A stretch of DNA of 64,000 nucleotides, taken from positions 2,240,001 to 2,304,000 of the forward strand of contig OZ244922.1 of the NCBI GenBank assembly GCA_965221905.1. The letters are read 5' to 3'. The notes beneath the pieces were generated by a model that did no database searches, was not told the DNA's origin, and saw only the letters and a program-made list of their open reading frames with translations. Position numbers and translations under genes: made by a program. This DNA comes from Chloroflexota bacterium (lineage in GTDB: Bacteria > Chloroflexota > UBA11872 > VXOZ01). Numbering within the stretch: position 1 is the stretch's first letter; each line of letters begins with the position of its first letter. This document shows, in pieces, positions 36,674 through 58,236 of this stretch.

Positions 36674-36679
36674 CTCCCG

Positions 36680-39595: not shown

Positions 39596-39681
39596 CACCG
39601 AGATACAACACTATGCAGTCCTTATACTGAACAAAGAATCCCTGGAGATTCGTCAAAGTCGCGCCAAATTGGGCGCGGTCC

Positions 39682-40920: not shown

Positions 40921-40932
40921 GAGGCTGGAGCG

Positions 40933-41535
40933 ATGAAGCAAAGAGCTATCGGACGCATCGTCAAGTCTAACTCCCACACGGACTACGTGTGCCAGGTCTA
41001 TGCCCCCAATGAGACGGCATACGACCCTCAGCCCAACGACTACGCCTTCGGCCGCTTTGTAAAAGCACCCATCGACGCAACAGGTGAACGCGAGGCCGTT
41101 GGCATCGTGTACGACACAATCCTTCTGAACCCGGAGTACGGCAGTATCGGTCCTCGCTTGAACCCTCCAAGCGAACAATTGGTGCTCTCCCCGGACTACC
41201 TTGTAGAGAAGGCCACTGCAGTCGGCATCATCATTGTCGGGCTAATCGACGGTGACACTATCGAGCACGGCGTCATTCCGCTCTCACTTCCCGTAGACGC
41301 CGAAGTTTCCAGCATTAGCAATGACGAAATACAGAGTTTCCATCAAGTGGGAGGGAAACTGTCGCTCGGCTATCTCCCCCACCTCATTTCGCACGAAAGC
41401 CCCCTGGTCACTGAACTCAGTCTCGCTGTATTTCGCCAGCTTCACGCGCTCTTTCCAGAGCCCGGCGACCGGCGTCTACTGAGCACACTCGCCGCCCACT
41501 TCACTTGGCAAGCGCGAGTAACACCGCTAGGCTAG
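40933..41535 (+). CDS. Stand-alone HAS-barrel-like protein (HerA N-terminal barrel homolog, no ATPase domain)
   Basis: IGRIVKSNSHTDYVCQVY...FGRFVK...VGIVYDT beta-barrel pattern; no Walker motifs; directly after nurA. Confidence 0.65.
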   Translation: MKQRAIGRIVKSNSHTDYVCQVYAPNETAYDPQPNDYAFGRFVKAPIDATGEREAVGIVYDTILLNPEYGSIGPRLNPPSEQLVLSPDYLVEKATAVGIIIVGLIDGDTIEHGVIPLSLPVDAEVSSISNDEIQSFHQVGGKLSLGYLPHLISHESPLVTELSLAVFRQLHALFPEPGDRRLLSTLAAHFTWQARVTPLG

Positions 41536-41606
41536 GTGTGCTTGCATTGAGCAGCAGGTGGAGGCTCACTTAACATTCCCGCAGTAAGTAAGGCGCCCAG
41601 CTCTTC

Positions 41607-42008
41607 CTAGTATTGCGTCGGCCAAACGCCGGGAACGCGGTATGCCTCGTGTTCACCCGGCCACGGCGGCATTGTGACTATCACGAATCGCAGCGGATGG
41701 TCTCCCGTTGTTCTGAATTGAAAGTGGGCGCCGACGGGGATCGAGAGGCTCGCGCCCGCAGCCACGTCCACAACCCGCTCCTCGCCACCCTTGCGCCGCC
41801 AGACTTGGCCCGTTCCCTCGAGGAAGTACCACACCTCTTCTACTGTCCTGTGCGCTACCGCCGCTGAAGTCTCTCCCGGGTTCAGCGTGCAGTGCACCAT
41901 ACTGCCGCGGCTCGTTGTAGACAGCAGCCGAATTTCGGACCCATCCGGCGCGAGCGTATCGTACTCCTTGGCGAGTTCCGTGTAATCCAGTTCTTGGTTC
42001 ATGCCCAT
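41607..42008 (-). CDS. Cupin-domain protein
   Basis: APDGSEIRLL, H..VEEVWYFLEG.G, IPVGAHFQFR and MPPWPG. Confidence 0.85.
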   Translation of the reverse strand: MGMNQELDYTELAKEYDTLAPDGSEIRLLSTTSRGSMVHCTLNPGETSAAVAHRTVEEVWYFLEGTGQVWRRKGGEERVVDVAAGASLSIPVGAHFQFRTTGDHPLRFVIVTMPPWPGEHEAYRVPGVWPTQY

Positions 42009-42357
42009 TGCCTCCTTCGACTCCTCCTGGGTGTAAGTCTGGCTGCATTCATGGCAGCAAAGCTGATTAGTGCCTTCGTAGCTCCATCAAGATTAAGTCA
42101 CGAGTGATGCGGCCTTGGTCGCTCTTGCGAAATCCATGCCTTCTTGAGAAGCTTCTCCAGGAAAGGTATCTGCGCCAAAACTGAAGGCACAGGCCTCAAA
42201 TGACGTAAAAGGTCGAAACGGCTGTGTAGGCAGTCGTGACCGCTCACTGCAAGACGCGTGCTGTACTATACTATCCGTTAGGATATCAAGGACCTTTGAT
42301 GAAGCCAGTGTGACGTCGAGTGAATCCGAGCTTGTATAGACTACGAACGGATTCTGG

Positions 42358-45300
42358 GTGGTACCTGACGAATCAAGCCGGCTTTTGTTCCGTTGCCTCA
42401 GTCTAGACCTGGAAATTAGCACTCGCGACGACCGCATCTACGCGTTAGCCGGAGTGCGCCCAGACACCGGCAAGTCTCTTGTCTTCCCCTCAGAAGGCCA
42501 GAGCATAACCGCCGCATTGTCTAGGCTAGACAATCTCAGTGGGGGCGCGGACTTTCTGCTAGGCCACAATCTGATCGCCTTCGATTTGCCAAAGCTGCAA
42601 GCTGCCAATCCCAGCTTACGGCTGTTGCGGCTGCCCGCCGTGGATACCCTTCGCCTCAATCCCCTCGCCTTCCCGCGCAATCCGTATCACCACCTGGTCA
42701 AGCATTACCAAGACGGGCAACTCAGGCGGGGGAAAATTAACGATCCGGAACTGGACGCGCGACTAACGTTGGAGGTCTTTAGCGACCAGCAAAAGGCCCT
42801 GCGCGCTGCGCCGGCCGACCTGCTAACAGCCTGGCATTGGCTGACGAGTGTACAAGATGGCACAGGATTCGATTGGGTATTCACGTTGCTCCGAGGCTCA
42901 GGCAGGCCCTCCGATTCTGAGGCGCATGAAGCAATTCGCAGACGGCTGACCGGCAACGCCTGCGTGACTCATGGGAATGAGGCCATAGCGAATGCATCCT
43001 GCCACGGCTGGCCACTAGCCTATGCGCTGGCCTGGCTGTCAGTGGCTGGCAGCAATTCGGTCATGCCGCCCTGGGTGCGGCACCAGTTTCCCGAAGCGGG
43101 ACACCTGGTGAGGCAGCTGCGCGACATCGCGTGTGCGGATTCTGCCTGCAACTGGTGCCAGGAACGGCACAACGCCCGCAAGGAACTTACTCGCTGGTTC
43201 GGCTTCACCGAATTCCGTCCCGAGCCGACGGATGAGTCCGGCCGGCCCATGCAGCAGTCTATTGTCGTAGCTGCCTTGGCGGGAGAACATCTGCTCGGGA
43301 TCCTGCCCACCGGCGCCGGCAAGTCGCTGTGCTACCAGATACCGGCGCTTTCCCGTTACGACAAGACCGGCGCATTGACGGTAGTGATTTCTCCTTTGGT
43401 CGCCCTAATGGCCGACCAGGTGGCGGGACTTGAAGCAAGAGGAGTCGATTCTTGCGTTACCATAAACGGTCTCTTGTCCATGCCAGAGCGGAGCGATGCG
43501 CTTGATCGGGTACGGCTCGGGGATGCCGGCATCCTCATCATATCACCCGAGCAGCTTCGCAGCGTCAGTGTGCGCCGTGTCTTGAGCCAACGTGAAATCG
43601 GCGCGTGGGTGCTAGACGAGGCCCACTGTCTCTCGAAGTGGGGGCACGCCTTCCGTCCCGACTATCGGTACGTTGGGCGATTCATACGCAAGAGGGCAGG
43701 GGAAGAGCCGATTCCGCCGGTGCTGTGCCTAACAGCGACTGCCAAGCCTGATGTCATAGCGGAACTCGTTGACTACTTTCAGAAAGAGCTAAATATCAGC
43801 TTGAAAGTCTTCGACGGCGGCGCGCGACGCACCAACCTAGAATTCGTGGTGGTACAAACAAGCGTTGGAGAGAAGCTCGCCCACATTCACCAAATCCTTA
43901 CGTCTGATCTACCAGATGATGAGTCGGGCGGGGCCATCGTGTACTGCGCGACGCAGCGACAAGCTAGAGAAGTCGCCGAGTTCCTGCAGGAAAAGGGGGT
44001 CGAGTCAGACTTCTTTCACGCGGGCCTGCCGCCGGAAACCAAGAAGGACGTCCAGCAGCGCTTCATCCATGGCGGTTTGCAGGTCATAGTCGCTACCAAC
44101 GCCTTCGGCATGGGAATCGATAAGCCGGACGTGCGGCTAGTGATCCACGCCGACATGCCGGGTTCCTTAGAGAACTATCTGCAGGAGGCGGGACGTGCGG
44201 GACGAGATCAGCGGGCGGCCCGCTGCGTGCTTCTCTACACAATGGAGGACGTGGAGCGCCAATTCGGTATGTCAGCCCGCTCACGGCTCACACGACGAGA
44301 AATCCACGGCGTCCTGCGCGCTCTGCGGAATCTGGACCGAAAGAAGCGCTTGGGAGGCGAGGTGGTGGCCACCGCCGGTGAGATCCTTGGTGAGGACGAC
44401 GAGAAGGCATTTCAGCGAGACTCCGCCACTGACGACACGCGCACGCGGACCGCGGTAGCTTGGCTGGAGGAATCTGAGCTACTGAACCGAGAAGAAAACC
44501 ACGTACAGATCTTTCCTTCCTCTCTACGGGTCAGTTCAGTGAGCGAAGCAAGTGCCAAGCTCAAGAAGGCCCACATTAGGGATGACTACCGCCGACATTT
44601 AATGACCATCTCAGAGGCGCTGATCGATGCGGATTCCGACGATGGCATCTCCACAGACGAACTCATGGCCGCATCGGGATTGAACTCAGAGGGTGTGCGA
44701 GCCGCACTGTACGACCTGGAGCGAATGGGTATTGCCAGTAACGATACGGTGTTGACCGCCTTCGTGCACGCAGGGGTGCAACGGGCTTCCCGCCAACGCT
44801 TCGAGCAAGCGGCAAATCTGGAGAAGGCCCTGATCGACCTCCTACAAGAGACAGCACCGGATATGGAAAAGGGGGACTCGTCAACGCTGCATCTGCGTGT
44901 GGCGACCCAAAGACTGAAGGACGAAGGTCATGCCTTTGCTCTGCCGGAATTCGTGCGTCGGATAATCCGCAGCATTGCCGCCGACGGGCGGGGCGAAGGT
45001 GGGGGTGGAGGAAGTCTTGGCGTGCGCGGGCGGGACAGGGAGACCCTGCAGGTAACCCTGCAACGCGACTGGAGTAGCTTGAAGAAGACCGCCGAATTGC
45101 GTCGTGCAGCCGCCAAGCGACTACTCGATCATCTGCTTGCCATTCTGCCTTCGGGAAGCCGCGGCACAGATCTGTTAGTCGAGACAACGTTGGGAAAGCT
45201 ACTGGCGGCCATCAGGTCTGACTTGACACTAACAAACGCAGTCAAGGACCCCGGCAAACTAACGGATCGCGCGCTGCTATGGCTGCACGAGCAGGAAGTC

Positions 45301-47484
45301 ATCCGCCTAAACAAGGGCTTAACCGTGTTTCGCCCGGCCATGACCATCCGCTTGCAGCCGGAGCGGCGCGGCTTCGCCCAGGCCGACTATACATCCCTCA
45401 AGCTTCATTACGACGAGCAAGTATTGCAGATTCACGTGATGGCGGAATACGTGCAGCAGGGCCTAGCGGCCATGGCGGATGCGCTGCGATTGGCCATGGA
45501 CTATTTCAGCTTGCGCAGAGAAGATTTCCTGCGTCGATGGCTGCCAGATCGAGACCAGGAGTTTTCCCGTCAGACCACACCGGAATCGTGGCAAGCCATC
45601 GTCGAAAGTCTAAGAAACCCAATCCAAAGAAGAATTGTTGCGGACGATAGAGAACAGACGAATGTCTTGGTGCTTGCCGGCCCCGGCTCGGGCAAAACAC
45701 GAGTGCTCGTGCATCGTATTGCCTACCTGATACGCGTCAGGCGCGAGAACCCTCGCAGCATCCTAGCTCTCTCCTACAATCGGCATGCCGCGGTCGAGAT
45801 TCGCCGCCGCCTTGCAGAACTCATTGGTGACGACGCCCGGGGCGTGATTGTGCTCACCTGCCACGCGCTCGCCATGCGGCTGGTTGGCGCGAGCTTTACA
45901 GGGCGTGCGAATAGCCTGAGCGAAGGAGATTTCCAGACTATCCTGAAACAGGCAGTGGACCTGCTCCGCGGGGAAGGATTGGAGCCGGATGAAGCTGATG
46001 AGTATCGAGCGCGGCTGCTGGCGGGTTTTCGCTGGATACTCGTTGACGAATACCAGGATAGTGGACCGGACCAATATGCGCTGATTTCCGCACTGGCGGG
46101 GAGAACGCTTTCCGAGGAAGACGATAAGATCAGTCTATTTGCGGTGGGTGACGACGATCAGAACATATACGCTTTCAATGGCTCTTCGGTGGAGTTCATC
46201 CGTCGCTTCGAAGAGGACTATGCAGCTAGACCCACGTTCCTCACTGACAACTATCGCTCTACAGCCAACATCATCGAGGCGGCCAATAGGGTAATTTAGC
46301 CGGCGCACCAGCGAATGAAGACCGGGCATCCAATTCACGTCAATCGAGCGCGCGCAAAGGACTCGCCTGGCGGCACGTGGGCTGGATTTGATCCGGTCGC
46401 CAGGGGTCGAGTCCTGATGCTGGAAACTGGAGACACCCCAATCTCCCAAGCACAGGCGGTCGTTGCTGACCTCAAGCGAATGGCAGGCCTTTCGCCCACC
46501 TGGGACTGGTCCGACTGCGCGGTGATCGCGCGCGAATGGAGTTATCTGGACCCAGTGCGCAGCCTTTGCGAACTTGAAGGCATTCCCGTGCAAATGGCAA
46601 ACGAGGAATTCACGGGCGTCTGGCATCTGCGGGAAACGCAAGCGCTTGTGAATTGGCTGCGCGGCAGAGAATCCCGCTTAGTGACGAGCGCCGGTCTGGA
46701 GGATTGGATAGCTCAGCAGCCATCAGGCATTTGGAATGAATTGTTGCTGGAAGCCATAGCCGAATTCGCGCTGGAGACAAGCGGCACGGAATCACCGGTG
46801 GATAACTTCATCGAGTGGCTGGCAGAGTGGGCACGGGAAGTGCGCCGCCGCCAGCGAGGGCTGTTGCTGCTCACCGCTCATCGCGCCAAAGGCTTAGAAT
46901 TCAATCACGTCGTCGTGCTCGCCGGCGGCTGGGGCCGCGTAGGCCGTGACGAGGACGTCGATGCTCCACGCAGACTCTATTATGTGGCGATGACCCGCGC
47001 GCGGCAGACTCTCACCCTTGCGCAACTTTCAGGAGATCAGCCATTCCAGGCAGCCTTTTCCGGCCTGCCATCGGTACAGCCTCGCAAGCCACTCCGCAAC
47101 CTTCCTCCGGCACGGCCGGAACTGACCCGTCAGTATCGGCGGCTCAGCCTGCGCGACATCTTTCTGAGCTTTCCCGCGTACAAGCCCTCCGGTCATCCGG
47201 TTCACCACGCCATTGCAGCGCTCTCGCCCGGAGATTCGTTGGATTTGCAGTCCGGTCCAAAACGCTGGGAGCTCTTGGATCGCGAGGGGACGGTCGTCGG
47301 GCAACTCGCAAGTAATTTCGCGCCACCCGATGGCATGAGCTGCACCTCTGCTACGGTTCTAGCGATCGTTACATGGGACAAAGAGAAGTCCGAGCCGCAA
47401 TTCCAAGGCAACTTTCGCTGCGAAAACTGGGAAGTCGTAGTACCGGAGTTGGTATTCGAGCCAGAGCGCCAGTCGGCGAACTGA
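42358..47484 (+). pseudogene. DEDD-exonuclease-like + RecQ + UvrD helicase fusion (about 1708 aa) interrupted by a single in-frame TAG at 46297-46299
   Basis: SLDLEI...GHNLIAFD...VDTL; RecQ PTGAGKSLCYQ, DEAH, ATNAFGMGIDK and QEAGRAGRD; UvrD AGPGSGKT, DEYQD, VGDDDQNIY and NYRS. ORF 46315..47484 is in the same frame and supplies TAHRAKGLEF and RRLYYVAMTRAR. Confidence 0.88.
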
Positions 47485-47907
47485 CTTGTGCTTCTGATGC
47501 AATTGTCCAATTCCGTTTCGGTCTGTGAATTTGGAAGTGAATCGGCTTTCACGTTATCGCCCTGGGAGACTTTCATATTTGGAGAGTCCGGAGTGTCGCT
47601 CTGCCTGCAGGCGCCACTCGGATAGTGGCGGTCCATGCGGGCAATGCAGGAACAGTTAGAAGCGTAGGGCGAGTTGATTCTAATTCTCGCTTTCAGCTTG
47701 TCCGGCTTACTCTCAAAGCCCAGGACCGCAACGACGCCTGCCCTTTAGCGTCCCCCTGCGTGGCGCCCGGCAAGGGACAGTCTACAGTGCGATCTTCGGT
47801 GTCCCTTGCGCAACTTGGCTGTGATATCCTACCTTCTGAGGCAACCTCTCGATACGGAATTCAGCGTCGAATTCAGGGGGGTTGGACTTTCAGGAGTTTT
47901 AGCTGCT

Positions 47908-49824
47908 ATGGGACCCTTCCTCGAAAGATGGCGCCGTATCGGCACGCGCCTGTATCTGGCTTTGGGAATTGCCGTAATCCTAACTCTGATTTCCGGTGCA
48001 GTAGGAGTCTTCTATTTCGAGCAGAGCGGCGACCTGAATTACCAGGTGCGGAATGAGTCCGTGCCGGCGCTGGAAGCAACATGGACTGTCGCTCGAGAGA
48101 CGGAGCGTTTGCGAAATCTGGGACTGGGATTGGCAGCCGAGCCTGATTTGGGGTTCCAAGGCTTGGCGAGGGGCACTGTGGTCGACTCCTTGGAACGGCT
48201 GGACTCTGCCTTGAATGTGGTGAGCGGCGTAGCAGAACTATCGGCGGAGGCGCAGGTAGTAAGCGATGCGGCATACGACCTAGCCGACGTAATAGACAAT
48301 CTGGAACGAAACCGTGAAGCGTTGCTGGGCACAAACCGGGTTGCCGCCGACTATCGTTTGATTCTGGCCACGAGCAGGTCGGACGCAGGTGAGTCCGAGG
48401 CGGCATTGTCGGTGCTGCGACAGGTGCTGGAGGCTAAAGACGAGACAGAATTGCAGAGACTGTGGGACGAATTTACAAGGCTGTACGCCACCGGCATAGA
48501 CCCGAGAGTGGCATCTCTGGGGGAGGGCCAGGGCGTATTCTATGTCCGCAGCCTTCAACTGGCACTGGAAGCAAACACAAGAGACCTCGCTGCATCATTT
48601 GAAGCGTCTAGTGTGACTCTGGAAAACGCGGTTTCCCGTCTACTGGCGGCGTCCCAGTCCCATTCCGCGGAGTCACTTGGACTGGCGGTCGGCAGCTTTG
48701 ACGAAGGACGGACCCTCTTGACGGCCATTAGCGTTATCAGCGTGATCGTGGCGACGCTGGCAGCATGGCTATGGGTGGGAAACGGCATGGTGCGGCGACT
48801 CTCGCGCATGTCGGAGCGCATGCGGCGCATGGCAGAGGGAGACTTGGAAACTCCGGTCCCGGAAGTGGGGCAAGATGAGATTGGTGAGTTGGCAAGCGCG
48901 CTGGAAGTGTTCCGCGAACAAGCGCTGGAAGTCCAACGCCTCAACCTCGTTGAGAAGCTTTATGAAGAGCTGCGCCAGACCAATGATGAGTTGAAACGGA
49001 CCCAAGCGCGCCTCATCGCCCAGGAGAAACTTGCCGCCCTTGGTGAGCTGGTCTCCGGGGTCGCCCACGAAATGAGGAACCCGTTGAACTTTGTCAACAA
49101 CTTCTCCGAAGGAACGCTTGAACTTTACAGCGAACTAAAGGAGATGTTGGACACATATCGGGATAAGATGTCGGCTGATGATTCGGCGCTGCTGGACGAT
49201 ATCAGTGAGGAGATGAACACAAGCCTCAACCGCGTTCTTTCGAACGGGGGACGCGCGCTGGCCATCGTGGAGCGAATGCGGGGTCTGGGAGTAGTGGGCG
49301 GAGATCCGGTGATGACCGAGTTGAACGGCATTCTGCGCGATGCGGTGCAAGCGGGATGCAACAACTATAGCGCCGACGTAGCGGACTTCACCGTGCGGAC
49401 GGTCTTCGACTTAGATCCGGCGGTGGGAGAACTATCCCTGGTTGAGACAGACTTTGGTGAAGCAATGTTGAACTTGGTGAGAAACGCCTGCTATGCCATG
49501 GAACTGAAGAAAGAAGCATCCGATGTAGCGTATGAGCCGATTCTGGCGGTCTCGTCGCGCTTAGTCAACGACATGGTGGAAATCCGAGTCCGCGACAACG
49601 GCACCGGTATCAAGGATGACGTTCTCAGCCAGATATTCAATCCCTTCTTCTCAACTCGGGAAGGCGTTTCAGGCGCCGGGCTCGGACTTCCCATCGCCGC
49701 TGACGTTGCCCGCAGGTTTGGAGGCGACCTGTCTGTGGACACAGTTTACGGTGAGTACACTGAATTCGCCATGTTACTACCGACGACTACGACTGCTCCA
49801 ACGGAGACCGGCTCACTGGTCTAG
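47908..49824 (+). CDS. Membrane sensor histidine kinase (helical extracytoplasmic domain, HAMP, HisKA, HATPase)
   Basis: Two TM helices; HAMP EGDL...DEIGELA; H-box VAHEMRNPLN; NLVRNA, DNGTGI, FNPFFST and GAGLGL. Confidence 0.92.
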   Translation: MGPFLERWRRIGTRLYLALGIAVILTLISGAVGVFYFEQSGDLNYQVRNESVPALEATWTVARETERLRNLGLGLAAEPDLGFQGLARGTVVDSLERLDSALNVVSGVAELSAEAQVVSDAAYDLADVIDNLERNREALLGTNRVAADYRLILATSRSDAGESEAALSVLRQVLEAKDETELQRLWDEFTRLYATGIDPRVASLGEGQGVFYVRSLQLALEANTRDLAASFEASSVTLENAVSRLLAASQSHSAESLGLAVGSFDEGRTLLTAISVISVIVATLAAWLWVGNGMVRRLSRMSERMRRMAEGDLETPVPEVGQDEIGELASALEVFREQALEVQRLNLVEKLYEELRQTNDELKRTQARLIAQEKLAALGELVSGVAHEMRNPLNFVNNFSEGTLELYSELKEMLDTYRDKMSADDSALLDDISEEMNTSLNRVLSNGGRALAIVERMRGLGVVGGDPVMTELNGILRDAVQAGCNNYSADVADFTVRTVFDLDPAVGELSLVETDFGEAMLNLVRNACYAMELKKEASDVAYEPILAVSSRLVNDMVEIRVRDNGTGIKDDVLSQIFNPFFSTREGVSGAGLGLPIAADVARRFGGDLSVDTVYGEYTEFAMLLPTTTTAPTETGSLV

Positions 49825-49887
49825 ACAAGTGCCGCCGGCACTAACTCACTCAGGCGCCACTACCGTTGCAGGATGCCTGCGCTCGCC

Positions 49888-51096
49888 TCAACGCCTGCGC
49901 AGAATCAGGTGAGCGAAGACACCAATGGCGAAGATGAATGCCAAGCCCTGGATAGCCATCAGGGTCACACGCCTGCGTGGCGTTGATGCAATGCCTCCCA
50001 GCGTATTGCGGATGCGGGGCAGGGCGTCACCTACCACGGGGACAGCAGGCAGATCCAAGTCGCGTCGATCAGGCTGCAACTCCGGTTCGACTGTGGCCTG
50101 TTCATCCGGCCCCGTTGTCGAACCGGCAGCAGACTCGGCCGCGAAAGCGGCACCAGTCTCGGCCGTGGGTGTGGCAACCGTCTCGGCCCTAGGGGTCGCA
50201 ATGGGTGCGACTGTGGGCACAGCCTTGAGTGTTTGAGTTGGTGTTGGCGTGGGCGCCGGCGTCGGTGTGGGGGTAGGCGTCGGCGGGGGTGGCGGCGGCG
50301 GAATTGGTGTAGGTGTAGGTGTAGGCACGGGCGCGGGCGCGGGCGTGGGTGGGGGCGGGGGAATCGGTGTGGGCCTCGGCGTTGGTGTGGGTGTGGGCGG
50401 CGGCGGTGGGACCGGCGTTGGCGGAGGAATTGGCGTGGGTGAAATAACCGGTATGGCAGTGGGCGTAGGCGTGGGTGTTGGCGTTGGAGTCGGGGTAGGC
50501 GGCGGTGGCGGAATCGGCGTTGGGATAGGAGTTGGCGTGGGTGCAATTATTGGGGTGGCAGTAGGCGTAGGCGTGGGTGTTGGCGTTGGAGTCGGGGTAG
50601 GCGGCGGTGGCGGAATCGGCGTTGGGATAGGAGTTGGTGACGGTGTTGGCGTCCGAGGGGGACCATCACTCTTGTAACTCACCGTTTCACTGGATGGAGA
50701 GCCTACGCTATAGCCATCCTTTTCATCATCAAATAGAGAATTTATCTCGATTCGGATCGTCCGATTTCCCTTATCCTCCAGACCATAGCTGCCTGATTTG
50801 CAGGTGTCACCGACACGGAATACGAAGGCAATCAGCGCAGCAGCGTAGCCATCTTCCGTCGAATCGAACACGATGACCCCACCTCTGACCTGATCCGGTT
50901 CCGATGTGATAACCGGACTAATGCATACTGAGTACCTGATTTGTGTCCCATCCTGATACGCGCCACCCATTTTTACCGAATACTCTTCTCCAAATACAAC
51001 GTTGTCGGGCTGAAGAGCAAGGGCAGAGACAGCAATGCAAAGAGCCAGGACGATCCGCTTGGCAAAAGGGGATTTGAGGTGACTCAAAAACCGCAA
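49888..51096 (-). CDS. Surface protein with signal peptide, small N-terminal domain, Pro/Thr stalk and C-terminal TM plus RRR
   Basis: [15 protein letters not shown] signal-like segment; about 140 aa of PT/PP repeats; C-terminal hydrophobic helix ending in RRR. Confidence 0.75.
50462..50637. repeat. Exact 74-bp direct repeat (102-bp period) inside the Pro/Thr stalk
   Basis: 50462-50535 equals 50564-50637 (GGCGTAGGCGTGGGTGTTGG...GGGATAGGAGTTGG). Confidence 0.85.
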
Positions 51097-51726
51097 GAGT
51101 TGACCCTTTTCACTTCACCTTGCGTTACGGCATTGTAAACTGTGCTGAAAAGGTATCGGCATAGACATGGCTGAGAGTGCGCCGCAGCTCAAGACAACGT
51201 CGTCCGGTCGCCTGCAACAATTCTGCTCCGCTGCCGTCAATATGCCACAAGGGCCGAATAGACGGCTTTCGGATTACTCCGAAGAACTACCTCCAAGCCA
51301 ATGTGCGAGCTAGAGTTGATTCCGCTCTTTCCGTGTCGTCGCACGAAGCCCGTGCTCTCCTGGAGAGAGCAAAGCTCTGGACCGTGTTGCACGGCAGAGG
51401 CACAATGAATTCACCTCTATTCCGTGTGCAGTGTACCATGATGCCACGGCGTATCGGCGATGGCGGGCAGGCTTCAAGACCATCTGGTGTCAACCTGTCA
51501 CACTCCTAATACTAGTACTTCTAGTTCAGCTTTCCAGTCATGCCGGTTTAGCCCGTACTTGTACACTCGTTCTCACATGATGTGCTATCCCAAGGGTGCG
51601 GGTGCCGTTCAAGGGCAGATCGAGCACAATAACATCAATCCACTGCCATTACCTGATAACAGGCGCCGCTGGTCAATTCCTTACGTCCTGGCATACGACG
51701 GTAAGTATGAGTGGAGGGCCTTGCCC

Positions 51727-51774
51727 CGACGCCTGGCGACGCCTGGCGTCGCCTGGCGTCGCCTGGCGTCGCCT
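51727..51774. repeat. 10-bp tandem repeat (GCCTGGCGWC) x4 in the putative promoter of the PLD-NTPase gene
   Basis: cgac-GCCTGGCGAC-GCCTGGCGTC-GCCTGGCGTC-GCCTGGCGTC-gcct, directly before TATACT (51780-51785). Confidence 0.9.
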
Positions 51775-51823
51775 TGCATTATACTATCGGCACGGGAGAC
51801 CTTTTTCCCTCGAGGAGGCCGTG

Positions 51824-53881
51824 ATGCCGATAGGCGAGCCCGGACAAATAGAAAACCGCGGATTCGAATTTGACGACGGTAGCGGGCTGCGGGTGGCGCA
51901 GGTCCGCTTTGAGTCTGAATCCAAGTTCTCTTGGTCGCTGTTCGACGGCTACGACCGCATCCGCATTCTCACCTATTCCGCAGGGGTTGGCGCGATCGTG
52001 CGGCTGCTTGAAAGGCATGGCTTTAGCGATTTCGAGTGCGTATTTGGGTGCGAGAGCACGCTGCGCACACTGAAGGACATCATGGCATTCCAGCAGGTGG
52101 CCATCAGCGACACCCGGGCCGCCATCAAGAACCTATCGGACGAACGCCACGCCTTCATTCTCAGCCGCGTCAGGGAAGGGCAAGCCCGCTTTTGGGTGCT
52201 GCGCAAACAGATCGCCCACGCCAAACTCTACCTGCTTGAGAACACGGAGACCGGTAGCACCCGTACCCTTGTAGGCTCCGCGAACCTATCGGAGACAGCC
52301 TTTGGGGGACACCAATTAGAGACACTGCTCTGCTTCGACAATGATGACGCTGCGTGGCGGCACTACCTTGGCATGTATGAATCCATCAGGGACCGGGCGT
52401 CGGATGAAATACCCCTGCCACCTGAACGGATCGAGAATTCGGAGATAACGCTGCAGGAAGTGCCGGTGCTCGATCCTGAAGATATTTCCAACTTGGTAAT
52501 TGAACCATCGGAAGGCGAGCTAGGCCAAGGCGATGGCGCCCACATCGCCGTTCCCGCGCAAATAGAGCGCATTGAGAAGATGAAAGCGGCGATTCCGCCG
52601 GTGGTAGCGAACCTGATGCCGCCGCTGCGTAACGGCAGACAGCACGTGACCCCCGATATCAGGCGCAAGATCGTGCGGGAGTCCAGCCGCATTCGCACTG
52701 TGCAAAACGAGGAAGACGCCGACCATCGAGAACTATCCATCGACAGGGACACAAAGAGCGTACTGCTCCTCGGCGATCCGTATTCCCTCGAAGCCGATCT
52801 CACCGCCGCGAAGAAAGACGCAGCCTTGCTGGTGGAGTTCTTCAGCAACTACGAGGGTACGTTCGAAGGCGGTATGGGGGTTGAGCGGCTCCAGCGAGAC
52901 TACTTCATCCTCTGGTCGTGGCTCTACTTCTCGCCCTTCATGTGCGACATGCGCACGCTGGCGGGCCACCAGGGGGACATCTTTCGGTTCCCGTCGTTCG
53001 CCATCGTCTACGGCAAGCCGTCTTGCGGCAAGTCCAGCCTGATCGAGACTCTCATGACTTCCATGTTCGGCAAGCCCTATAGCATCGATAAGCGCGAGTT
53101 CACCCGGGCCAGACTGAGAGACCTTCAGTACGCGTACAAGCGATTCCCCGCCGTGTTCGACGATATCGGCAGGTCGGCAATTCGGAGCCACGGCGAGGAT
53201 GTCATCAAGGACGAGAACCCGCCACGGGTCCCGGAATACCCCTGTTTCGTGCTCTCGATGAATCAAGAGCTGAAGGCCTTTACCGATCAGATCGTCAAGC
53301 GCAGCCTGATGATCTACACCACCACGGCGCTTCCCTCCTACAAGGATAAGCTGCGCCACGATTTGCACCTGAAGATACAGGAAGTGCGCCGCAGCCTCTC
53401 CACGCATCTCTATCGCGAATACCTGCGCAGGGCGCTCGCTCAACTTGACGAAGACCCCCAACCCGATGACTGGCTCGCGTTCTCCTCAACCATCCTCGCC
53501 GGGTTGATTGGCGAATTGCTGGACGACAATCCACCGCAATGGTGCGCGCCCATTACGTGGGATGAATACGCGGACAAACGCCACGAGCGGGTCAAGTCTC
53601 AGCTCGAGCACCTCCTGCGGCCCGCCACCCGGATAAAGAAGGAGGGCGACCGGCCCACCGGCTGGATTCTGGAGGCGGAAAAGGTCATCGTCATCGAGCA
53701 GAAAGACACCTTCGGAAGGCGCGAGTTCGACTGGGAAAACGTGCCCTCCACCCTCATCGACGACAACGCCAGCGTCGGCGGCCGCACCGTGCTCAACCGC
53801 AAAGAACTGGAAGAATTCCTAGACAGGAAGCTTACCGGGGGAGGAATTCGATTCCTGGATAAGCTGTTTGGTCGGAGTTGA
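51824..53881 (+). CDS. PLD-family (HxK, NgoFVII-like) nuclease domain fused to a P-loop NTPase
   Basis: RBS GAGGAGG at 51812; HAKLYLL...VGSANLS PLD motif; Walker A YGKPSCGKSS and Walker B PAVFDDIG; about 685 aa. Confidence 0.8.
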   Translation: MPIGEPGQIENRGFEFDDGSGLRVAQVRFESESKFSWSLFDGYDRIRILTYSAGVGAIVRLLERHGFSDFECVFGCESTLRTLKDIMAFQQVAISDTRAAIKNLSDERHAFILSRVREGQARFWVLRKQIAHAKLYLLENTETGSTRTLVGSANLSETAFGGHQLETLLCFDNDDAAWRHYLGMYESIRDRASDEIPLPPERIENSEITLQEVPVLDPEDISNLVIEPSEGELGQGDGAHIAVPAQIERIEKMKAAIPPVVANLMPPLRNGRQHVTPDIRRKIVRESSRIRTVQNEEDADHRELSIDRDTKSVLLLGDPYSLEADLTAAKKDAALLVEFFSNYEGTFEGGMGVERLQRDYFILWSWLYFSPFMCDMRTLAGHQGDIFRFPSFAIVYGKPSCGKSSLIETLMTSMFGKPYSIDKREFTRARLRDLQYAYKRFPAVFDDIGRSAIRSHGEDVIKDENPPRVPEYPCFVLSMNQELKAFTDQIVKRSLMIYTTTALPSYKDKLRHDLHLKIQEVRRSLSTHLYREYLRRALAQLDEDPQPDDWLAFSSTILAGLIGELLDDNPPQWCAPITWDEYADKRHERVKSQLEHLLRPATRIKKEGDRPTGWILEAEKVIVIEQKDTFGRREFDWENVPSTLIDDNASVGGRTVLNRKELEEFLDRKLTGGGIRFLDKLFGRS

Positions 53882-54567
53882 AGATGAATCAGACTGAGCC
53901 CAATTCATTGCGCCCTGGAGATGCGACGCATCTGGCTCATGCTCCCTTGAAAACAACCAGCCTGCCGGCCGAGTGGGGCGCCGCGAGGAACTGCATAGCC
54001 CTGAATTCAGATTGTTTGGTGGGCCAAGGCGTACCGATTTGCGAACTTTTCGCTGGGAAGTTCGATTGTAGCATCGTGGGCGACTATTCACCACATTTTT
54101 TCATGCGATGAGTCACTCAGCCACCGACTCGTCGTTGTGCCAAACGGAGCCGAGCACCAGTCCACCGTGCTCGACTGACGACTACGGAACGCCCGTCTGT
54201 TGGCAACCCGCGCATCGGAATGCCGACACACCATGAGCGCAATCCGTTTCGTCCGCTTACGGAGCTTGCTCTTTGACCTGAACCTTCCTCACTGCTACCT
54301 TAGACTTGGATGTTTGCGGGTGGGTCACTGTGGACCGAAGGGTCGGAAACGCGCCTAGAGCAAACCGAGAAATTGTCCCTCACCCTGTTCATGACTCTCA
54401 GCTACGACTCCGCATTCGCAGTATAGCGCGCTACTTCCCCATGGATGAGGCATATTGCTATGAACTGCGACACAGAGTTTGGACGGGAAACTTCCGTCAG
54501 GCCAGTAATTCATTGGTGCAATAGGGCCATCTCGTATAGGCAATTTACCTTGAGGAGACGATATTAG

Positions 54568-55557
54568 ATGGAGAACGCCATTCACACCGCAGAGGGCTAC
54601 ACGGATCGAATACGACAAGAGCTCGAAAACTGCCTTATTGAGACGAATCTTTCTCAAGGTGAGAAGTTTGAAGCCAAAGTACGGGATCGATACGATCTTG
54701 GGGATCGTTTGGTACTCATCACCACCGACCGACAGAGTGCCTTCGACCGGGTGCTGGCCGCTATCCCCTTCAAGGGGCAGGTCCTCAACATGACGAGCGC
54801 ATGGTGGTTCGAACAGACCCGCCATATTGTGCCAAATCAGGTTTTGTCCATCCCCGATCCAAACGTCACAATTGCTAAGAAATGTACTGTCTTCCCGATT
54901 GAGTTCGTGGTGCGTGGATACATCACCGGAACCACGAGCACCTCCCTCTGGACGGTCTACCAGAGTGGTCAGCGTCACTACTGTGGCATTGATTTGCCCG
55001 ACGGCCTGGTGAAAAACCAGAAGCTCCCGACGAATTACCTCACACCGACCATCAAGGACGAGGACCACGACCTTCCGATCAGCCCTGACGAGATCGTGTC
55101 CGAGAACTGGATGACGGCCGAGGATTGGGAACAATGTAGCCGCATCGCACAGGAACTTTTCGCTTTCGGTCAAGCCAAGGCCGCCGAGTATGGCCTGATT
55201 CTCGTCGATACCAAATATGAGATGGGCCGTGACGAGAACGGTGAGATCCTTCTGATCGATGAGATCCATACCCCTGACTCCAGTCGCTACTGGATCGCCG
55301 ACACTTATCAACAGCGCATGCGGGAGGGACAGGAACCCGACAACGTCGACAAAGAATTCCTCCGGCTCTGGTTCACGGAGAACTGCAACCCCTACGAAGA
55401 TGACGTCCTGCCACCGGCGCCGGATGACCTTGTAATCGAACTCTCAAGTCGCTACATCTACCTTTACGAGACGATCACCGGTCGCTCTTTCGAGTTTCCG
55501 GAGGCGGACCAACCGATCGAGACACGTTTGGAAAACAACCTTGAAGGAATCGCTTGA
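54568..55557 (+). CDS. purC: Phosphoribosylaminoimidazole-succinocarboxamide (SAICAR) synthase, long form
   Basis: KVRDRY, TDRQSAFD, IPFKGQVLN, EFVVRGY, LVDTKYEMG, DEIHTPDSSRYW and DKEFLR; RBS GAGGAG. Confidence 0.95.
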   Translation: MENAIHTAEGYTDRIRQELENCLIETNLSQGEKFEAKVRDRYDLGDRLVLITTDRQSAFDRVLAAIPFKGQVLNMTSAWWFEQTRHIVPNQVLSIPDPNVTIAKKCTVFPIEFVVRGYITGTTSTSLWTVYQSGQRHYCGIDLPDGLVKNQKLPTNYLTPTIKDEDHDLPISPDEIVSENWMTAEDWEQCSRIAQELFAFGQAKAAEYGLILVDTKYEMGRDENGEILLIDEIHTPDSSRYWIADTYQQRMREGQEPDNVDKEFLRLWFTENCNPYEDDVLPPAPDDLVIELSSRYIYLYETITGRSFEFPEADQPIETRLENNLEGIA

Positions 55558-55710
55558 AGATATGCGGAGGACAATAGGGCCGATGTGATTCTCCTTCCAC
55601 TTCAATTGACGGAAAGCCCTATCCAACAAGCAAGAAGTGTAGGCTGATCAGGCGCTCAACTTAACCGAGCCGGCATTTTTTCTTAGAAGGTGTCCAATAG
55701 GTCGCCTGAT

Positions 55711-55769
55711 CCGTTCGTGGTGAGCTTGTCGAACCAAGAACGACCCTTCGACAGGCTCAGGGTGAACGG
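55711..55769. repeat. REP-like palindromic element
   Basis: CCGTTCGTGGTGAGCTTGTCGAA...TTCGACAGGCTCAGGGTGAACGG imperfect inverted repeat; a half copy lies at 24328-24353. Confidence 0.8.
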
Positions 55770-55890
55770 AGTTCTTACACACCATTGGAGTTCTAGCGTC
55801 GCAAACACCGTTACCTCTTCTCTGACGGTTCGTCGCCGGGGCTCGTCAAGTTGGCTTGATAGTTAAGCCGAAATTGAATCGAGCGAAAAA

Positions 55891-56550
55891 GTGAAGAGAT
55901 TTATCCTCTTTGACCATGATGGCGTTCTGGTGGATACCGAATTCTGGTATTACAAGGCCGGAGAGCGCGCCCTGGCTGACATTGGATTTATTTTGGATAG
56001 AGATCAATACGTCCGAGACATGACCCAGGGATTGGCCACCTGGGGCCAAGCTAGAGCGGCAGGTATTGATGAACAGACTATCAGCAGGCAGCGTGAAGTC
56101 CGTAATGTCTATTATCAGAAATATCTTAGAACAGAAGACATCGAAATCAAGGGTGTCTTGGAAACGCTGGACGTACTCGCAGCTGAGCACAGGATGGCCG
56201 TAATTACTACCTCCAAACCACCTGATTTCGCCTTAATACACGATAGGCGATCCATTCTGGATCATATGGAATTCTATTTTACTCGGGAGGATTACGAGCG
56301 AGCTAAACCACATCCCGAACCCTATCTGAGAGGGCTCCAACGCTTTGGTGCTACTGCCGCTGAAACGGTTGTTGTTGAAGACTCGGCGAGAGGGATGAAC
56401 TCGGCAATTGCGGCGGGTATTGACTGCATCGTGGTCGCGAACGAGTTCACTGCAGCTCACGATTTATCCAAAGCGACTGCCAAGGTTGCTACGTTTAGGG
56501 AACTGCCATCTGCAATAAGGGGCTTGGACAATTTACCCGCGCGACGCTGA
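55891..56550 (+). CDS. HAD-family phosphatase (beta-PGM/CbbY-like)
   Basis: FDHDGVLVDTE, ITTS, KPHPEPYL and VEDSARG. Confidence 0.9.
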   Translation: MKRFILFDHDGVLVDTEFWYYKAGERALADIGFILDRDQYVRDMTQGLATWGQARAAGIDEQTISRQREVRNVYYQKYLRTEDIEIKGVLETLDVLAAEHRMAVITTSKPPDFALIHDRRSILDHMEFYFTREDYERAKPHPEPYLRGLQRFGATAAETVVVEDSARGMNSAIAAGIDCIVVANEFTAAHDLSKATAKVATFRELPSAIRGLDNLPARR

Positions 56551-56596
56551 AGAGCGCGCGCCTGCCAAAAGCGTTTGGCCTTAGAAATCGAGAGTC

Positions 56597-56765
56597 ATGA
56601 ATCAGCAAACGCAGAAGCAACCCGCCGAATCGCCGGCCGAAAGCTATGAATATCAGATGGTACCGGCCATATTTGCCCCTTGGGTGCCGGCCCAACTGGG
56701 CTTTGCAGCGCCACAGATTGGCGGAATTTTCCTGGATGTCGCGTGTGGTACTGGCGTTTTCACGC
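56597..56765 (+). pseudogene. N-terminal remnant of a class I SAM-dependent methyltransferase
   Basis: AESYEYQMVPAIFAPW...FLDVACGTGVFTR (motif I), after which similarity ends. Confidence 0.65.
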
Positions 56766-56972
56766 GAAGTTGCCGAGGCTTTGGACCTCATCGTGGAGTT
56801 CCGTGAGCGTAAGGAGAAGCTGGAGATTGCCGCAGAAGAAGCGAGGAGCTTGCCCAGGAAGCGGTGGCAACTCCTGGATAGCGCCGATGCCTTCGCCACT
56901 TTCGCCGAGGAGATGGACGAGATTCTCAAGGACAACGCCTACGGAATTCTCTTGCGCTTCAAGAGAAAGTGA
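56766..56972 (+). pseudogene. Putative C-terminal remnant of a large serine recombinase
   Basis: EFRERKEKLEIAAEEARSL...LLDSADAFATFAEEMDEILK resembles the coiled-coil C-terminal region of Chloroflexota recombinase-family proteins (recalled, not searched). Confidence 0.45.
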
Positions 56973-57007
56973 CCTGGGCAGATGGTTGAGGGGCAGATCA
57001 ACTGGGC

Positions 57008-57745
57008 CTATCTAGTTGGGTACCGAGCGTTCGGGCCTTCAAGGATGGCGCGCTGGGAATCGGTCAGGTCTGCATAGTCATTGGGGTCCAGGTAGCTGGC
57101 CGACCATGAGAGCGGGTGCGGGCTGTACTTGAAGAAGATGGTGCGGCGCTCGTCAGCGCCGTTCCAGGGAAGGGTGCCGTGGGTAAGGGCCTCAGTGAAG
57201 ATGATGGCGGTGCCGGCGGGTCCGGTTACCCGCTCCACGAAAGGGCCCGGCTCGTCCATCACTTTCCACTCATCGGGGAACTTGTAGTTGCTCTTGTGCG
57301 AGCCTGGCACGCAGCCGAAGCCGCCGTCCATGGGGCCAACATCCTTCAAATTGTAGGCAACCACGGATAGGCCGTTATGCATCATCCCGTTCTGGAAGCG
57401 GTAGTAGAACGTGGGCTTGAAGGGGGCACCACCGCCGTGGAGGCTCGTTCCGATCGGGCCCTTGCCTGACCTGATGACATCGAGATAAACGTGGTCGAGC
57501 CTGAACTGATCGCCAAGCAGTTCGGCCAGGTAGGGTGTGATGGCCGGATTGTCGATTAGGTCGCGGTAGTCCTTGGACCAGTCGAGCAGGGGCGCAAACC
57601 TGTGGGTGCGCATGTCCGTTGGGCACTCAGTTGCGATGTGCTCGTCGAGCACGCTGTTGAGCTGGGCGATCTTCTCAGGTGACAATGCTCCCGGCACAAC
57701 AAGGTAGCCTTGAAGGTCGAACATGTAGCGCTCGTGGTCGTTCAT
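57008..57745 (-). CDS. Phytanoyl-CoA dioxygenase (PhyH) family Fe(II)/2-oxoglutarate oxygenase
   Basis: FDLQGYLVV, LHGG, GGFGCVPGSHKSN, AGTAIIFTEALTHG and RRTIFFKY. Confidence 0.88.
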   Translation of the reverse strand: MNDHERYMFDLQGYLVVPGALSPEKIAQLNSVLDEHIATECPTDMRTHRFAPLLDWSKDYRDLIDNPAITPYLAELLGDQFRLDHVYLDVIRSGKGPIGTSLHGGGAPFKPTFYYRFQNGMMHNGLSVVAYNLKDVGPMDGGFGCVPGSHKSNYKFPDEWKVMDEPGPFVERVTGPAGTAIIFTEALTHGTLPWNGADERRTIFFKYSPHPLSWSASYLDPNDYADLTDSQRAILEGPNARYPTR

Positions 57746-58159
57746 GAGTTGTCTCCCTGTTACATGTTATCTGGAATCAATGGCTAGAGCCTTTATGCCA
57801 TGTTCCTTCCAGGCCCTGTTTCTAGCCTACGTCGACCGCCTCGATGGTCCACCAAGAGTCGGCAACTCAATACCTACCTTGCCACTCTGGAGGACCAATC
57901 GCAATAACCTGGTTTCGATCTCTGTAACCGAGGTCATGCCAAGACAGCAGACATGCACTTGAGTGGCGTCCAAGATTTGCTTTCGAGCGGGCGCCCCTCT
58001 AACTTCCCTTACACGGTTCCGTTCTTACCCTCCGTATTGTCACATCCCTGGGAAACTATCTCAAAATGGTCAGCCGCCACTGTCGGCGGAACCACAGGTC
58101 AAGTCTGGTCAAATGCAACCGTGGAATAGTTCGAGTCCCTTCAGGTCTTAGCTATGAAC

Positions 58160-58236
58160 TGGTGGGCAAGAGAGGACTCGAACCTCCGACCTCCACGATG
58201 TCAACGTGGCGCTCTAACCGGCTGAGCTACTTGCCC
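58160..58236 (-). tRNA. tRNA-Val (anticodon GAC)
   Basis: Minus strand GGGCAAGTAGCTCAGCCGGTTAGAGCGCCACGTTGACATCGTGGAGGTCGGAGGTTCGAGTCCTCTCTTGCCCACCA: acceptor stem GGGCAAG/CTTGCCC, anticodon stem CCACG/CGTGG with loop TTGACAT, T-loop GTTCGA, encoded CCA. Confidence 0.97.

Follow-up and report, generated by a model that had tools for sequence, protein, structure and literature searches.

A predicted PLD nuclease-AAA+ ATPase with an amphipathic tail, a candidate one-gene immune effector of Chloroflexota related to haloarchaeal AgaP

Several described defence enzymes couple a phospholipase D (PLD) nuclease to a motor driven by nucleoside triphosphates (NTPs), including the Type IV enzyme SauUSI, the R and N proteins of NgoAVII/CglI and MtsD of the MANTIS system. 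Nucleases of this kind are metal-independent, single-HKD PLD enzymes in which dimerisation forms one active site, and the motors of SauUSI and MtsD are superfamily 2 (SF2) helicase-like ATPases (MANTIS preprint). PLD proteins were also listed in earlier surveys among the nucleases of operons encoding prokaryotic Argonautes (pAgos; PMC6299218), and the gene for AgaP, the PLD-family partner of the long-A pAgo in haloarchaeal APAP, accompanies 28 of 63 haloarchaeal ago genes (Cheng et al. 2024, PMC11442185). On its own, AgaP is toxic in Haloarcula hispanica, a toxicity that is abolished by H105A or K107A and suppressed by pAgo, and plasmid restriction by the pAgo-AgaP pair needs the PLD site (PMC11442185). 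A further precedent is SNIPE, a nuclease bound to the membrane that cuts phage DNA as it is being injected; its anchoring prevents autoimmune cleavage, and removal of the anchor is toxic through the nuclease (PMC13190303). ATP-driven PLD nucleases, AgaP and a membrane-held defence nuclease are all already known. Here, we analyse a gene (P0001; 51824..53881 including the stop codon, + strand) carried by a 64,000-nucleotide stretch of contig OZ244922.1 from a Chloroflexota bacterium, the product of which appears to join a PLD nuclease to a different type of motor and to a C-terminal amphipathic tail. This whole stretch is referred to as the window, and all positions are counted along it; residue numbers are those of the 685-amino-acid (aa) protein.

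The reading frame is open throughout 51824-53881, and the gene is supported by its translation into 685 aa, by homologues of the same length and by an AlphaFold2 model. By sequence and model, the product is composed of five parts in one polypeptide: a single-HKD PLD domain, a middle domain, a superfamily 3 (SF3)/MCM-like AAA+ domain, a C-terminal domain and an amphipathic tail. We propose that it is an ATP-dependent nuclease that would attack invading DNA as a one-gene, restriction-like immune effector, a reading in which our confidence is evenly divided and in which the defence phenotype, like the nuclease substrate, oligomeric state, helicase activity and membrane binding, is inferred. A defence role for the stand-alone form is considered likely, because the protein is homologous to AgaP, its genomic context is of the accessory type, defence genes are frequent neighbours of its relatives, and phage records contain no match to it.

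The N-terminal PLD (single HKD) nuclease domain (about aa 30-195; 51911..52408, + strand) was delimited from Pfam, invariant residues and Foldseek. The motif letters quoted in the original prediction, HAKLYLL...GSANLS, are all there as H132, K134 and G151-S152-A153-N154-L-S156; motif reading and alignment place the catalytic H132-x-K134 at 52217-52225 and the G151-S-A-N154 motif at 52274-52285 (both + strand), with only one HKD motif per chain. When 49 full-length relatives, 23-67% identical to the query, are aligned, H132, K134, S152, N154, S156 and E166 prove invariant and G151 nearly so (>=90%). The motif spacing is non-canonical, with 16 residues between the lysine and the glycine, and E139 occupies the usual aspartate position. 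The Pfam profile RE_NgoFVII matches at 23.8 bits, exactly its gathering score (E 3.2e-5), and PLDc_2 at E 1.3e-3, under its cut-off; in Foldseek comparisons the PLD part matches the NgoAVII R-protein (4rct, E 2.4e-5) and SauUSI (7clg_B, E 2.9e-3). The HxK...GSxN motif, together with these profile and fold matches, assigns the domain by sequence and predicted fold to the PLD superfamily of nucleases (NgoFVII/Nuc/BfiI type).

The centre of the protein had originally been read as a P-loop NTPase; its Walker motifs are real, and the module is more exactly a predicted SF3/MCM-like AAA+ helicase module (about aa 345-525; 52856..53398, + strand), an assignment made because Foldseek matches and the order of the motifs both point to it. 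Walker A (GKPSCGKS, aa 397-404; 53012-53035) is followed by Walker B (VFDD, aa 444-447; 53153-53164), by a strand ending in S478-M-N480 and, 13 residues on, by R493, all on the + strand. We take these to be SF3 motifs, with N480 (53261-53263) presumably a sensor-1-like residue and R493 (53300-53302) a candidate arginine finger, both named from their position in the alignment. Within the same 49-sequence alignment, G397, G402, K403, P442, D447, N480, R493 and D549 are invariant. Because the residues of both sites are invariant among relatives as divergent as these, the nuclease site and the nucleotide site are both under selection, and profile, fold and invariant residues agree on the PLD plus NTPase architecture that had been proposed.

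The full-length AlphaFold2 model, built from the 49-sequence alignment, has a mean predicted local distance difference test (pLDDT) score of 88.9. Searched against the Protein Data Bank (PDB), its ATPase matches the SCCmec helicase Cch (5dgk, E 2e-6), SV40 T-antigen (1svl, 2.1e-4), SaPIbov1 Rep (8tch, 2.2e-4), 5j40 (2.8e-4), JC-virus (JCV) helicase and many further AAA+ proteins; the alignment to Cch (5dgk_A) extends over 642 columns, and the TM-scores are low (0.14-0.32), as expected with a multi-domain query. Rep and Cch have been classed as SF3/SF6 (PMC9371898). In the viral library BFVD there are 80 matches at E<=0.001, with DUF927/primase-helicases on top and 'replication protein B' (RepB), ring-shaped helicases and D5-type ATPases among the others. 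Cch, SaPI Rep, SV40 large T antigen and D5/DUF927 proteins are thus the best structural matches for about aa 200-685. The window protein differs from these SF3/MCM-like helicases in that its N-terminal partner is a PLD domain, where they have a primase, origin-binding domain or HUH nuclease, and in that most loci of its relatives are without an associated replication module. Pfam returned only weak matches for the P-loop part, including RNA_helicase at E 0.013, and neither the protein alone nor the family profile detected a PDB chain by sequence. Between nuclease and ATPase lies a middle domain (about aa 245-340; 52556..52843, + strand), modelled as helices and strands with high pLDDT, which may match the N-terminal tier of ring helicases. 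Behind the ATPase, a predicted helical and small beta domain (about aa 528-666; 53405..53821, + strand) was modelled separately at a pLDDT of 85.6; Foldseek of this domain against the PDB gave 0 matches at E<=0.001, with Cch and SaPI Rep only at E 0.4-0.6, and an Atlas feature search with it gave nothing over 0.76.

The family to which this protein belongs is large. Of the 8000 candidates scored in a word-indexed search, 967 proteins reached E<=1e-3; the 120 best homologues are 74-91% identical to the query, and the three named ones are each a 'phospholipase D family protein' from Chloroflexota/Chloroflexi metagenome-assembled genomes (MAGs). An exhaustive search of 50%-identity representatives gave 816 clusters at E<=1e-3, 530 at <=1e-10 and 205 at <=1e-30, and many of the 816 are full-length proteins of 620-800 aa. 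Precomputed labels on homologues at 74-91% identity are PF09565 and PF27394; the latter, 'Aq_aa27' in Pfam 38.1, is borne by 97-98% of the members of the three best-scoring Atlas clusters, and its Atlas clusters come from Pseudomonadota, Bacillota and Archaea. From the labels of its homologues and Atlas neighbours, the window protein is best assigned to PF27394; literature searches for 'Aq_aa27' returned only unrelated papers. One clade of the family has an added N-terminal HTH_17 domain (excisionase/MerR-type), and in a Bacillota Atlas cluster 89% of members carry HTH_3. No fused form of >1200 aa was found, which is weak evidence, and a search for shorter forms gave 305 proteins at E<=1e-10, several of them N- and C-halves from equal-length contigs that may be frameshifted genes or assembly errors.

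The relatives were sampled by a scan in which 226 of 250 pattern matches were confirmed, and the best 80 of these 226 define the related loci discussed below. With few exceptions they come from MAGs of Chloroflexota or Dehalococcoidia and are 54-94% identical to the query; the label is Latescibacterota for four records (64-76% identity) and Caldilineaceae for one. Two contigs have two diverged copies, with 74% and 55%, and 77% and 54%, identity to the query. By tblastn, the family was found on 8 of 72,556 plasmids with the query and on 25 with a distant member, and neither of these two queries matched any of 50,697 phage records. A plasmid of Thermus oshimai (pTHEOS02, 5914-8972) has a copy seemingly split by a transposase-family gene, its tblastn match lying in two pieces across three hypothetical proteins and a transposase.

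Several plasmid homologues lead directly to AgaP. On plasmids of Haloferax alexandrinus, Natrarchaeobaculum sulfurireducens and Halomontanus rarus, a homologue directly follows the gene for a 'Piwi domain-containing protein', and on pNATPE02 of Natrinema pellirubrum a 717-aa open reading frame (ORF; L090:4789-6942) follows the Piwi gene. Residues H105, K107, E112, G119, S120, D122, G157, S158 and N160 of the Natrinema ORF are those published for AgaP, and because its residues coincide with the published numbering (PMC11442185) we identify this ORF as AgaP. The gene table of pNATPE02 gives the 717-aa agaP ORF only as a 375-aa 'hypothetical protein' (5815-6942) plus small opposite-strand ORFs, so that the published AgaP is under-annotated there. 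By hhalign, the family profile aligns with the Natrinema ORF at a probability of 99.6% (E 1.5e-24, 559 columns) and with the Natrarchaeobaculum protein at 99.6% (E 1.8e-24, 570 columns), both alignments spanning the PLD domain to the C-terminal domain; by profile comparison, AgaP is a full-length homologue of the window protein. In both, PLD, middle, P-loop and C-terminal regions follow one another in this order, and both end in a basic amphipathic C-terminus. The words 'ATPase', 'Walker' and 'P-loop' are absent from the main text of the AgaP paper (PMC11442185). The 'Agap' of PMC11162769 is a different protein, with no PLD or ATPase terms.

By contrast, the window protein is without a pAgo: a hidden Markov model of 4 haloarchaeal pAgos had no match at E<=1e-3 among six-frame ORFs of the 64-kb window and the 80 loci, and neither the window neighbours nor the 127 cluster representatives of genes adjacent to the relatives showed a Piwi domain. 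The distance from the lysine to GSxN is about 50 residues in AgaP (HxK(x)~49GSxN) and 16 in the window protein. In a 58-row alignment and FastTree phylogeny, the five haloarchaeal proteins (from L086-L090) form their own long-branched clade, for which long-branch effects are flagged, and the window protein groups with P0123 and P0124 at a great distance from that clade; Walker A reads GK-G in 5/5 haloarchaeal rows and GK[ST] in all 53 others. Because of the missing pAgo, the separate clade, the canonical Walker A and the 16-residue gap, we regard the window gene as a stand-alone paralogue with an apparently intact motor, and not as a component of APAP. Conversely, the GK-G Walker A hints that the pAgo-linked branch has altered or lost its ATPase function. 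The claim of an undescribed system has to be narrowed accordingly: PADLOC-DB v2.0.0 recognises the 685-aa protein only through weak domain-level matches (the PLD segment to ZacB at 2e-5, the P-loop to mad8 at 0.0045), and NCBIfam and PHROGs return no match; the family itself already exists as PF27394, and its haloarchaeal branch is AgaP of APAP. Literature searches and PADLOC v2.0.0 yielded no description of an SF3/MCM-like module in the AgaP/Aq_aa27 family, of a conserved amphipathic tail or of a test of the stand-alone bacterial form.

The protein ends in a Gly-rich hinge and a predicted cationic amphipathic helix (aa 672-685, GGGIRFLDKLFGRS, G672 to S685; 53837..53878, + strand), recognised from its hydrophobic moment, the model and the motif of its clade. 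The query tail has a hydrophobic moment of 0.83 and a net charge of +2, and the AlphaFold2 model places a helix at 676-681 with low pLDDT. As a joint criterion, the C-terminal 16 residues had to reach a maximum helical hydrophobic moment of >=0.6 and a net charge of >=+2 and to contain >=4 large hydrophobics; 51 of 83 full-length, mutually related family representatives pass, as do 51 of 699 unrelated neighbour C-termini and 110 of 1660 internal family windows. Over the same 16 residues, the mean maximum 9-residue hydrophobic moment is 0.68 in the family and 0.49 in the control, the mean net charge +3.3 and +0.2, and the mean number of aromatic residues 2.6 and 1.1. Most of the 82 representatives inspected over their last 40 residues finish in a short Arg/Lys and Phe/Trp/Leu-rich stretch after E-x-F-[LF], the conserved end of the C-terminal domain in the family. 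Among the 121 sequences of the close clade, no part varies more in sequence than the tail, which nevertheless keeps the motif G-L-L-x-K-[IL]-L-G-R-R, or more broadly G-[LF]-[LFW]-x-[KR]-[ILM]-[LF]-G-R-R, behind a Gly/Arg-rich hinge, and a similar basic amphipathic C-terminus occurs in AgaP and in 8/8 translated plasmid homologues. Of the MinD-like membrane-targeting tail that had been proposed, the character is thus conserved in the family (51/83 against 51/699) and the sequence is not.

By analogy, this tail is an attractive candidate for a peripheral membrane-targeting sequence. A single copy of the MinD membrane-targeting sequence is too weak, and ATP-dependent dimerisation supplies the affinity (PMC8155659), an avidity logic that an oligomer assembled by ATP could exploit. 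The MinD sequence and the predicted tail helix are alike in being short, cationic, amphipathic and C-terminal, behind a flexible segment; there is no homology between them, and the resemblance is physico-chemical only. That the tail is instead a nucleic-acid-binding, partner-binding or ring-closing/autoinhibitory peptide is possible rather than probable. Peptides rich in Arg, Lys, Trp and Phe also bind nucleic acids, and many of the tails are dominated by Arg and Trp; the model has low confidence for the tail; and the tail is kept in the pAgo-associated AgaP, for which regulation by a partner is known (PMC11442185). However, the close-clade hydrophobics at i, i+1, i+4 and i+5 after a Gly-rich hinge form an interfacial-helix pattern that goes beyond a basic patch, and the feature is kept whatever the genomic partner, which favours membrane targeting.

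The genes around the family change from locus to locus. Around the 80 loci and the window, 1393 ORFs fell into 990 clusters, and next to the 80-member cluster of the target itself the biggest neighbour cluster has 12 members only; the genomic context is highly variable and of the accessory or island type. Only L001, L003, L005 and L006 repeat the window order of target, purC, HAD and PhyH, with a partial match in L047. A recognised defence or toxin-antitoxin gene directly adjoins the target in 17 of the 80 loci, a count that has no matched control. Specifically, the adjacent gene encodes a self-contained Type IIG enzyme (L002), a Type I R subunit (L009), a BrxD-like ATPase (L004), GmrSD (L027), Mrr/PDC-S02 (L040), a PDC-S37/Hhe-like helicase-nuclease (L047), a Drt8 fragment (L039), a downstream CBASS cyclase (L052 and L053), REase-ARP (L056), Uma2 (L068), a HigB-like protein (L012, L020 and L043) or PIN (L038), and in L067 and L069 a complete CBASS (patatin phospholipase, CD-NTase cyclase and E1-E2) lies directly upstream. 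The CBASS operon of L067 (744-9879) also has a 1016-aa ORC/Cdc6-like ATPase-TPR-SMODS fusion near it. In 10 of the 80 loci the gene next to the target codes for a recombinase or transposase; the copy in L063 is truncated, with a Mu-type transposase behind it. On plasmids of Acetobacter and Komagataeibacter (Acetobacteraceae), the gene lies amid VapC, BrnTA, MazEF and HicAB modules, away from repA/parA, and on an Athalassotoga plasmid it adjoins a helicase-methyltransferase-helicase block.

As a control for adjacency, the nearest genes >=7 kb off on each side (121 cluster representatives) were compared with the directly adjacent set (127 representatives). By Pfam only, defence and mobile types combined account for 19/127 adjacent and 8/121 distant representatives (one-sided Fisher p=0.027), the mobile type alone for 8/127 and 3/121 (one-sided Fisher p=0.12). 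The enrichment of defence and mobile genes beside the target is suggestive, not strong. Defence genes are frequent beside relatives, the defence-only difference has p=0.12, and the window itself is no defence island.

The proposed ATP-dependent nuclease could work as follows. Subunits would assemble via their AAA+ domains, with ATP sites between subunits and R493 as arginine finger, and the motor would load on DNA and track along it. The N-terminal PLD domains would pair into one catalytic site, single-HKD PLD nucleases needing a dimer, and the paired domains would cut DNA. The amphipathic tail would have a weak membrane affinity, effective only once assembly gathers several tails, as in MinD, and the membrane hold would keep a self-toxic nuclease off the nucleoid and near DNA entry sites. 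The tail would thereby provide avidity-dependent membrane association, or some other restraint against a self-toxicity such as that seen with AgaP alone. A membrane-held nuclease meeting incoming DNA had been put forward in the original prediction; the idea has a published precedent in SNIPE (PMC13190303), which is built from unrelated domains. The two share the concept of a constitutively membrane-held nuclease kept from self-cleavage. SNIPE has an N-terminal transmembrane helix, DUF4041 and GIY-YIG, whereas the candidate anchor here is a predicted peripheral C-terminal helix, and the available text on SNIPE mentions no ATPase (PMC13190303).

Several observations weigh against such an immune effector. 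First, the C-terminal domain is without a fold match and gives no clue to foreign-DNA recognition, and the best structural relatives of the motor are mobile-element replication helicases, not defence proteins. Second, the window's own neighbours are not defence genes, and in the closest clade the gene looks stable and vertically inherited, its divergence tracking that of the neighbouring kinase and helicase. Third, the defence-only enrichment is weak (11/127 adjacent against 5/121 distant representatives), and the PADLOC scan covered 46 of the 127 adjacent and 0 of the distant representatives. Finally, 32 of 83 representatives fail the tail criterion, model confidence for the tail is low (block pLDDT 60 and 54), and the relatedness of the family sequences, which are not independent, makes the tail statistics and p-values overstate significance.

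If the stand-alone form does protect, it would be a compact one-gene system joining a replicative-helicase-type AAA+ motor to a PLD nuclease, a combination not found in PADLOC-DB v2.0.0, and would provide a second, mechanistically different case of spatial self/non-self discrimination after SNIPE. It would also lead to a re-interpretation of AgaP, with its ATPase-like half and tail, and could explain the toxicity of AgaP alone. Since the family is large, occurs in bacteria and archaea and has no solved structure detectable by sequence, one set of experiments would annotate many genes. A broader proposal, which we hold to be doubtful, is that PF27394 is a widespread, ancient one-gene immune module in which ring assembly both pairs the PLD sites and clusters the tails, such that the enzyme is active only at the membrane and distinguishes self from non-self by location, without methylase or guide; the AgaP branch, with its GK-G Walker A, would then be derived, target selection having been handed to Argonaute.

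The functional alternative that survives best, although we consider it unlikely, is a modification-dependent enzyme of the Type IV kind, combining a PLD nuclease, an ATP motor and a reader domain as SauUSI does, with the tail incidental. A PLD domain is indeed joined to an NTPase, SauUSI is among the fold matches (7clg_B), and L027, L040 and L046 have further Type IV enzymes (GmrSD, Mrr-like) next to the homologue. The absence of a neighbouring methyltransferase, as originally stated, also fits: no DNA methylase domain was found in the 17 larger ORFs scanned (33877-64000), and the directly adjacent genes of the 80 loci include restriction-modification genes only in L002 and L009, with no conserved methylase neighbour. 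The window and the 80 loci likewise lack the linked methylase or N-protein ATPase that would mark an R-M subunit of the NgoAVII/CglI type. By contrast with SauUSI and NgoAVII, no B3-like or SRA-like reader was matched, and there is no methylase or accessory ATPase partner. The motor argues against a Type IV enzyme too, being predicted as AAA+ (SF3/MCM-like) and not as the SF2 helicase-like ATPase of SauUSI or MtsD; aa 528-666 match no known fold (0 at E<=0.001), and hence no modified-base reader either, although they may form a reader of novel fold, and the conserved tail is left unexplained. MtsD, a PLD plus SF2 protein, does not belong to the present family.

A replication or mobilisation function is improbable in our view: the protein would be a Rep-like initiator whose PLD domain nicks via a covalent phospho-histidine and whose SF3/MCM-like ring unwinds. 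This would account for the best fold matches, which are self-loading mobile-element helicases (Cch, SaPI Rep) and viral SF3 helicases, as well as for the clade with an N-terminal excisionase-type HTH_17 and for an Arcobacter plasmid copy that adjoins parAB. Three loci, L018 (5507-14078), L019 and L022, have the homologue between a Replic_Relax protein and a large serine recombinase and look like an integrative conjugative element bearing the gene; TraG/TrwB-type genes lie near the homologue in L022 and L067 (13833-21954). The Replic_Relax protein of these loci is preceded by an 894-aa protein with a weak mad8 match. However, most loci are without hallmarks of mobile elements, and no terminal inverted repeats flank the window gene, for which a transposon reading was dropped on that ground. 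Carrier plasmids have their own Rep genes elsewhere, the 50,697 phage records hold no match, the copies in two-copy genomes have diverged and are not recent duplicates, and the tested homologue, AgaP, works in immunity (PMC11442185).

Finally, the gene could be a DNA-repair or end-processing accessory to the machinery encoded upstream of it. At 34991-47484 the window encodes an Mre11-like phosphoesterase, a Rad50-like SMC ATPase, NurA and a 200-aa ORF (34991-41535, + strand), followed by a RecQ-UvrD helicase. In 10 of the 80 loci the helicase is encoded no more than 10 kb from the target, accompanied by Rad50/NurA genes in L002, L004 and L006, and it is directly adjacent in L002, L006, L007 and L012. 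On a Halobaculum plasmid (L086, 9144-14616), the homologue stands directly before a metallophosphoesterase, an SMC ATPase, NurA and an ATP-binding protein, and on a Haloferax plasmid Piwi and PLD genes are followed by UvrD, a PD-(D/E)XK nuclease and a helicase. This repair function is equally improbable to us, as the 10 bacterial loci all come from a single close clade (80-94% identity) and represent one evolutionary event, the other 70 being without the association, as the patchy distribution, plasmid presence and pAgo linkage fit an accessory conflict gene better, and as the repair-like module could equally be part of a defence island, its SMC protein matching LmuB (1.4e-32) and mad3 (1.3e-29) in PADLOC. 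The Mre11/Rad50/NurA association is a lead for a repair- or island-linked reading, not evidence for a system.

The upstream helicase is itself a RecQ-like and UvrD-like fusion (42358-47484, + strand), broken in the window by an in-frame TAG at 46297-46299. In relatives it is a single ORF of about 1700-1750 aa, and among the 7 long copies examined the TAG position is a Glu codon in 6/6 with a matchable segment; a nonsense mutation or a sequencing error could each explain the TAG. PADLOC finds the RecQ part DpdF/PsyrT-like and the UvrD part GajB-like. Between this helicase and the target lie a HAMP histidine kinase gene (47806-49824), an immediate neighbour, and a gene for a 402-aa membrane protein with Pro-Thr repeats (49888-51096, - strand), identified from its signal and anchor segments. 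The latter protein has an N-terminal hydrophobic segment, a long Pro-Thr-rich region (encoded by 102-nt and shorter DNA repeats) and a C-terminal hydrophobic anchor, and matches no Pfam, PADLOC or PHROGs family. Downstream, the target is followed by purC (54568-55557), beyond which lie a HAD hydrolase and a PhyH dioxygenase, and the flanks of the target gene are non-coding over 727 bp and 686 bp.

Comparison with L001, L003 and L006, which are species-representative genomes, revealed an abrupt change in identity at the 3' end of the gene. The block at about 54000-58200 (about 4.2 kb: intergenic sequence, purC, HAD and PhyH) is about 100% nucleotide-identical to these loci and ends near tRNA-Val (58160-58236, - strand), whereas identity is 81-95% inside the gene and lower upstream (65-95% left of the block). 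Faster evolution of the target gene was rejected as an explanation, because its protein has diverged as much as the kinase and helicase encoded upstream. The anomaly may lie in the identical downstream block, which may reflect recent transfer or a sweep, or assemblies sharing material.

Turning to the 5' end of the gene, the same frame runs open further upstream to a GTG at 51596. This longer start is unsupported: the ATG at 51824 is taken as the right start, since a length of 685 aa with 100% query coverage is found for most of the 120 best homologues. A Shine-Dalgarno sequence, GAGGAGG (51812..51818, + strand), read off the sequence, lies 5 nt 5' of this ATG. Rfam gave no match in 49500-55000. 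A tandem array of a 10-bp unit, CGCCTGGCGT, is present in about 4.5 copies at 51727..51776 (Tandem Repeats Finder: period 10, 4.5 copies, 97% matches) and can also be read as overlapping inverted repeats (family D1 and inverted pairs I1-I3 of the repeat finder). The array is shorter in the related loci L001, L047 and L003 by upstream alignment, and its exact 20-mer is absent from all 90 loci searched. It abuts a conserved 26-nt box (51773..51798, + strand) with a TATACT hexamer (51780-51785); this box is nearly invariant in 6/6 aligned upstream regions, including those of L005 and L006, which have unrelated sequence further upstream. A consensus sigma-70 scan found no canonical promoter at the box. 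Its conservation suggests that the 26-nt box is probably the gene's own promoter or operator, and the adjoining 10-bp repeat could tune or switch expression.

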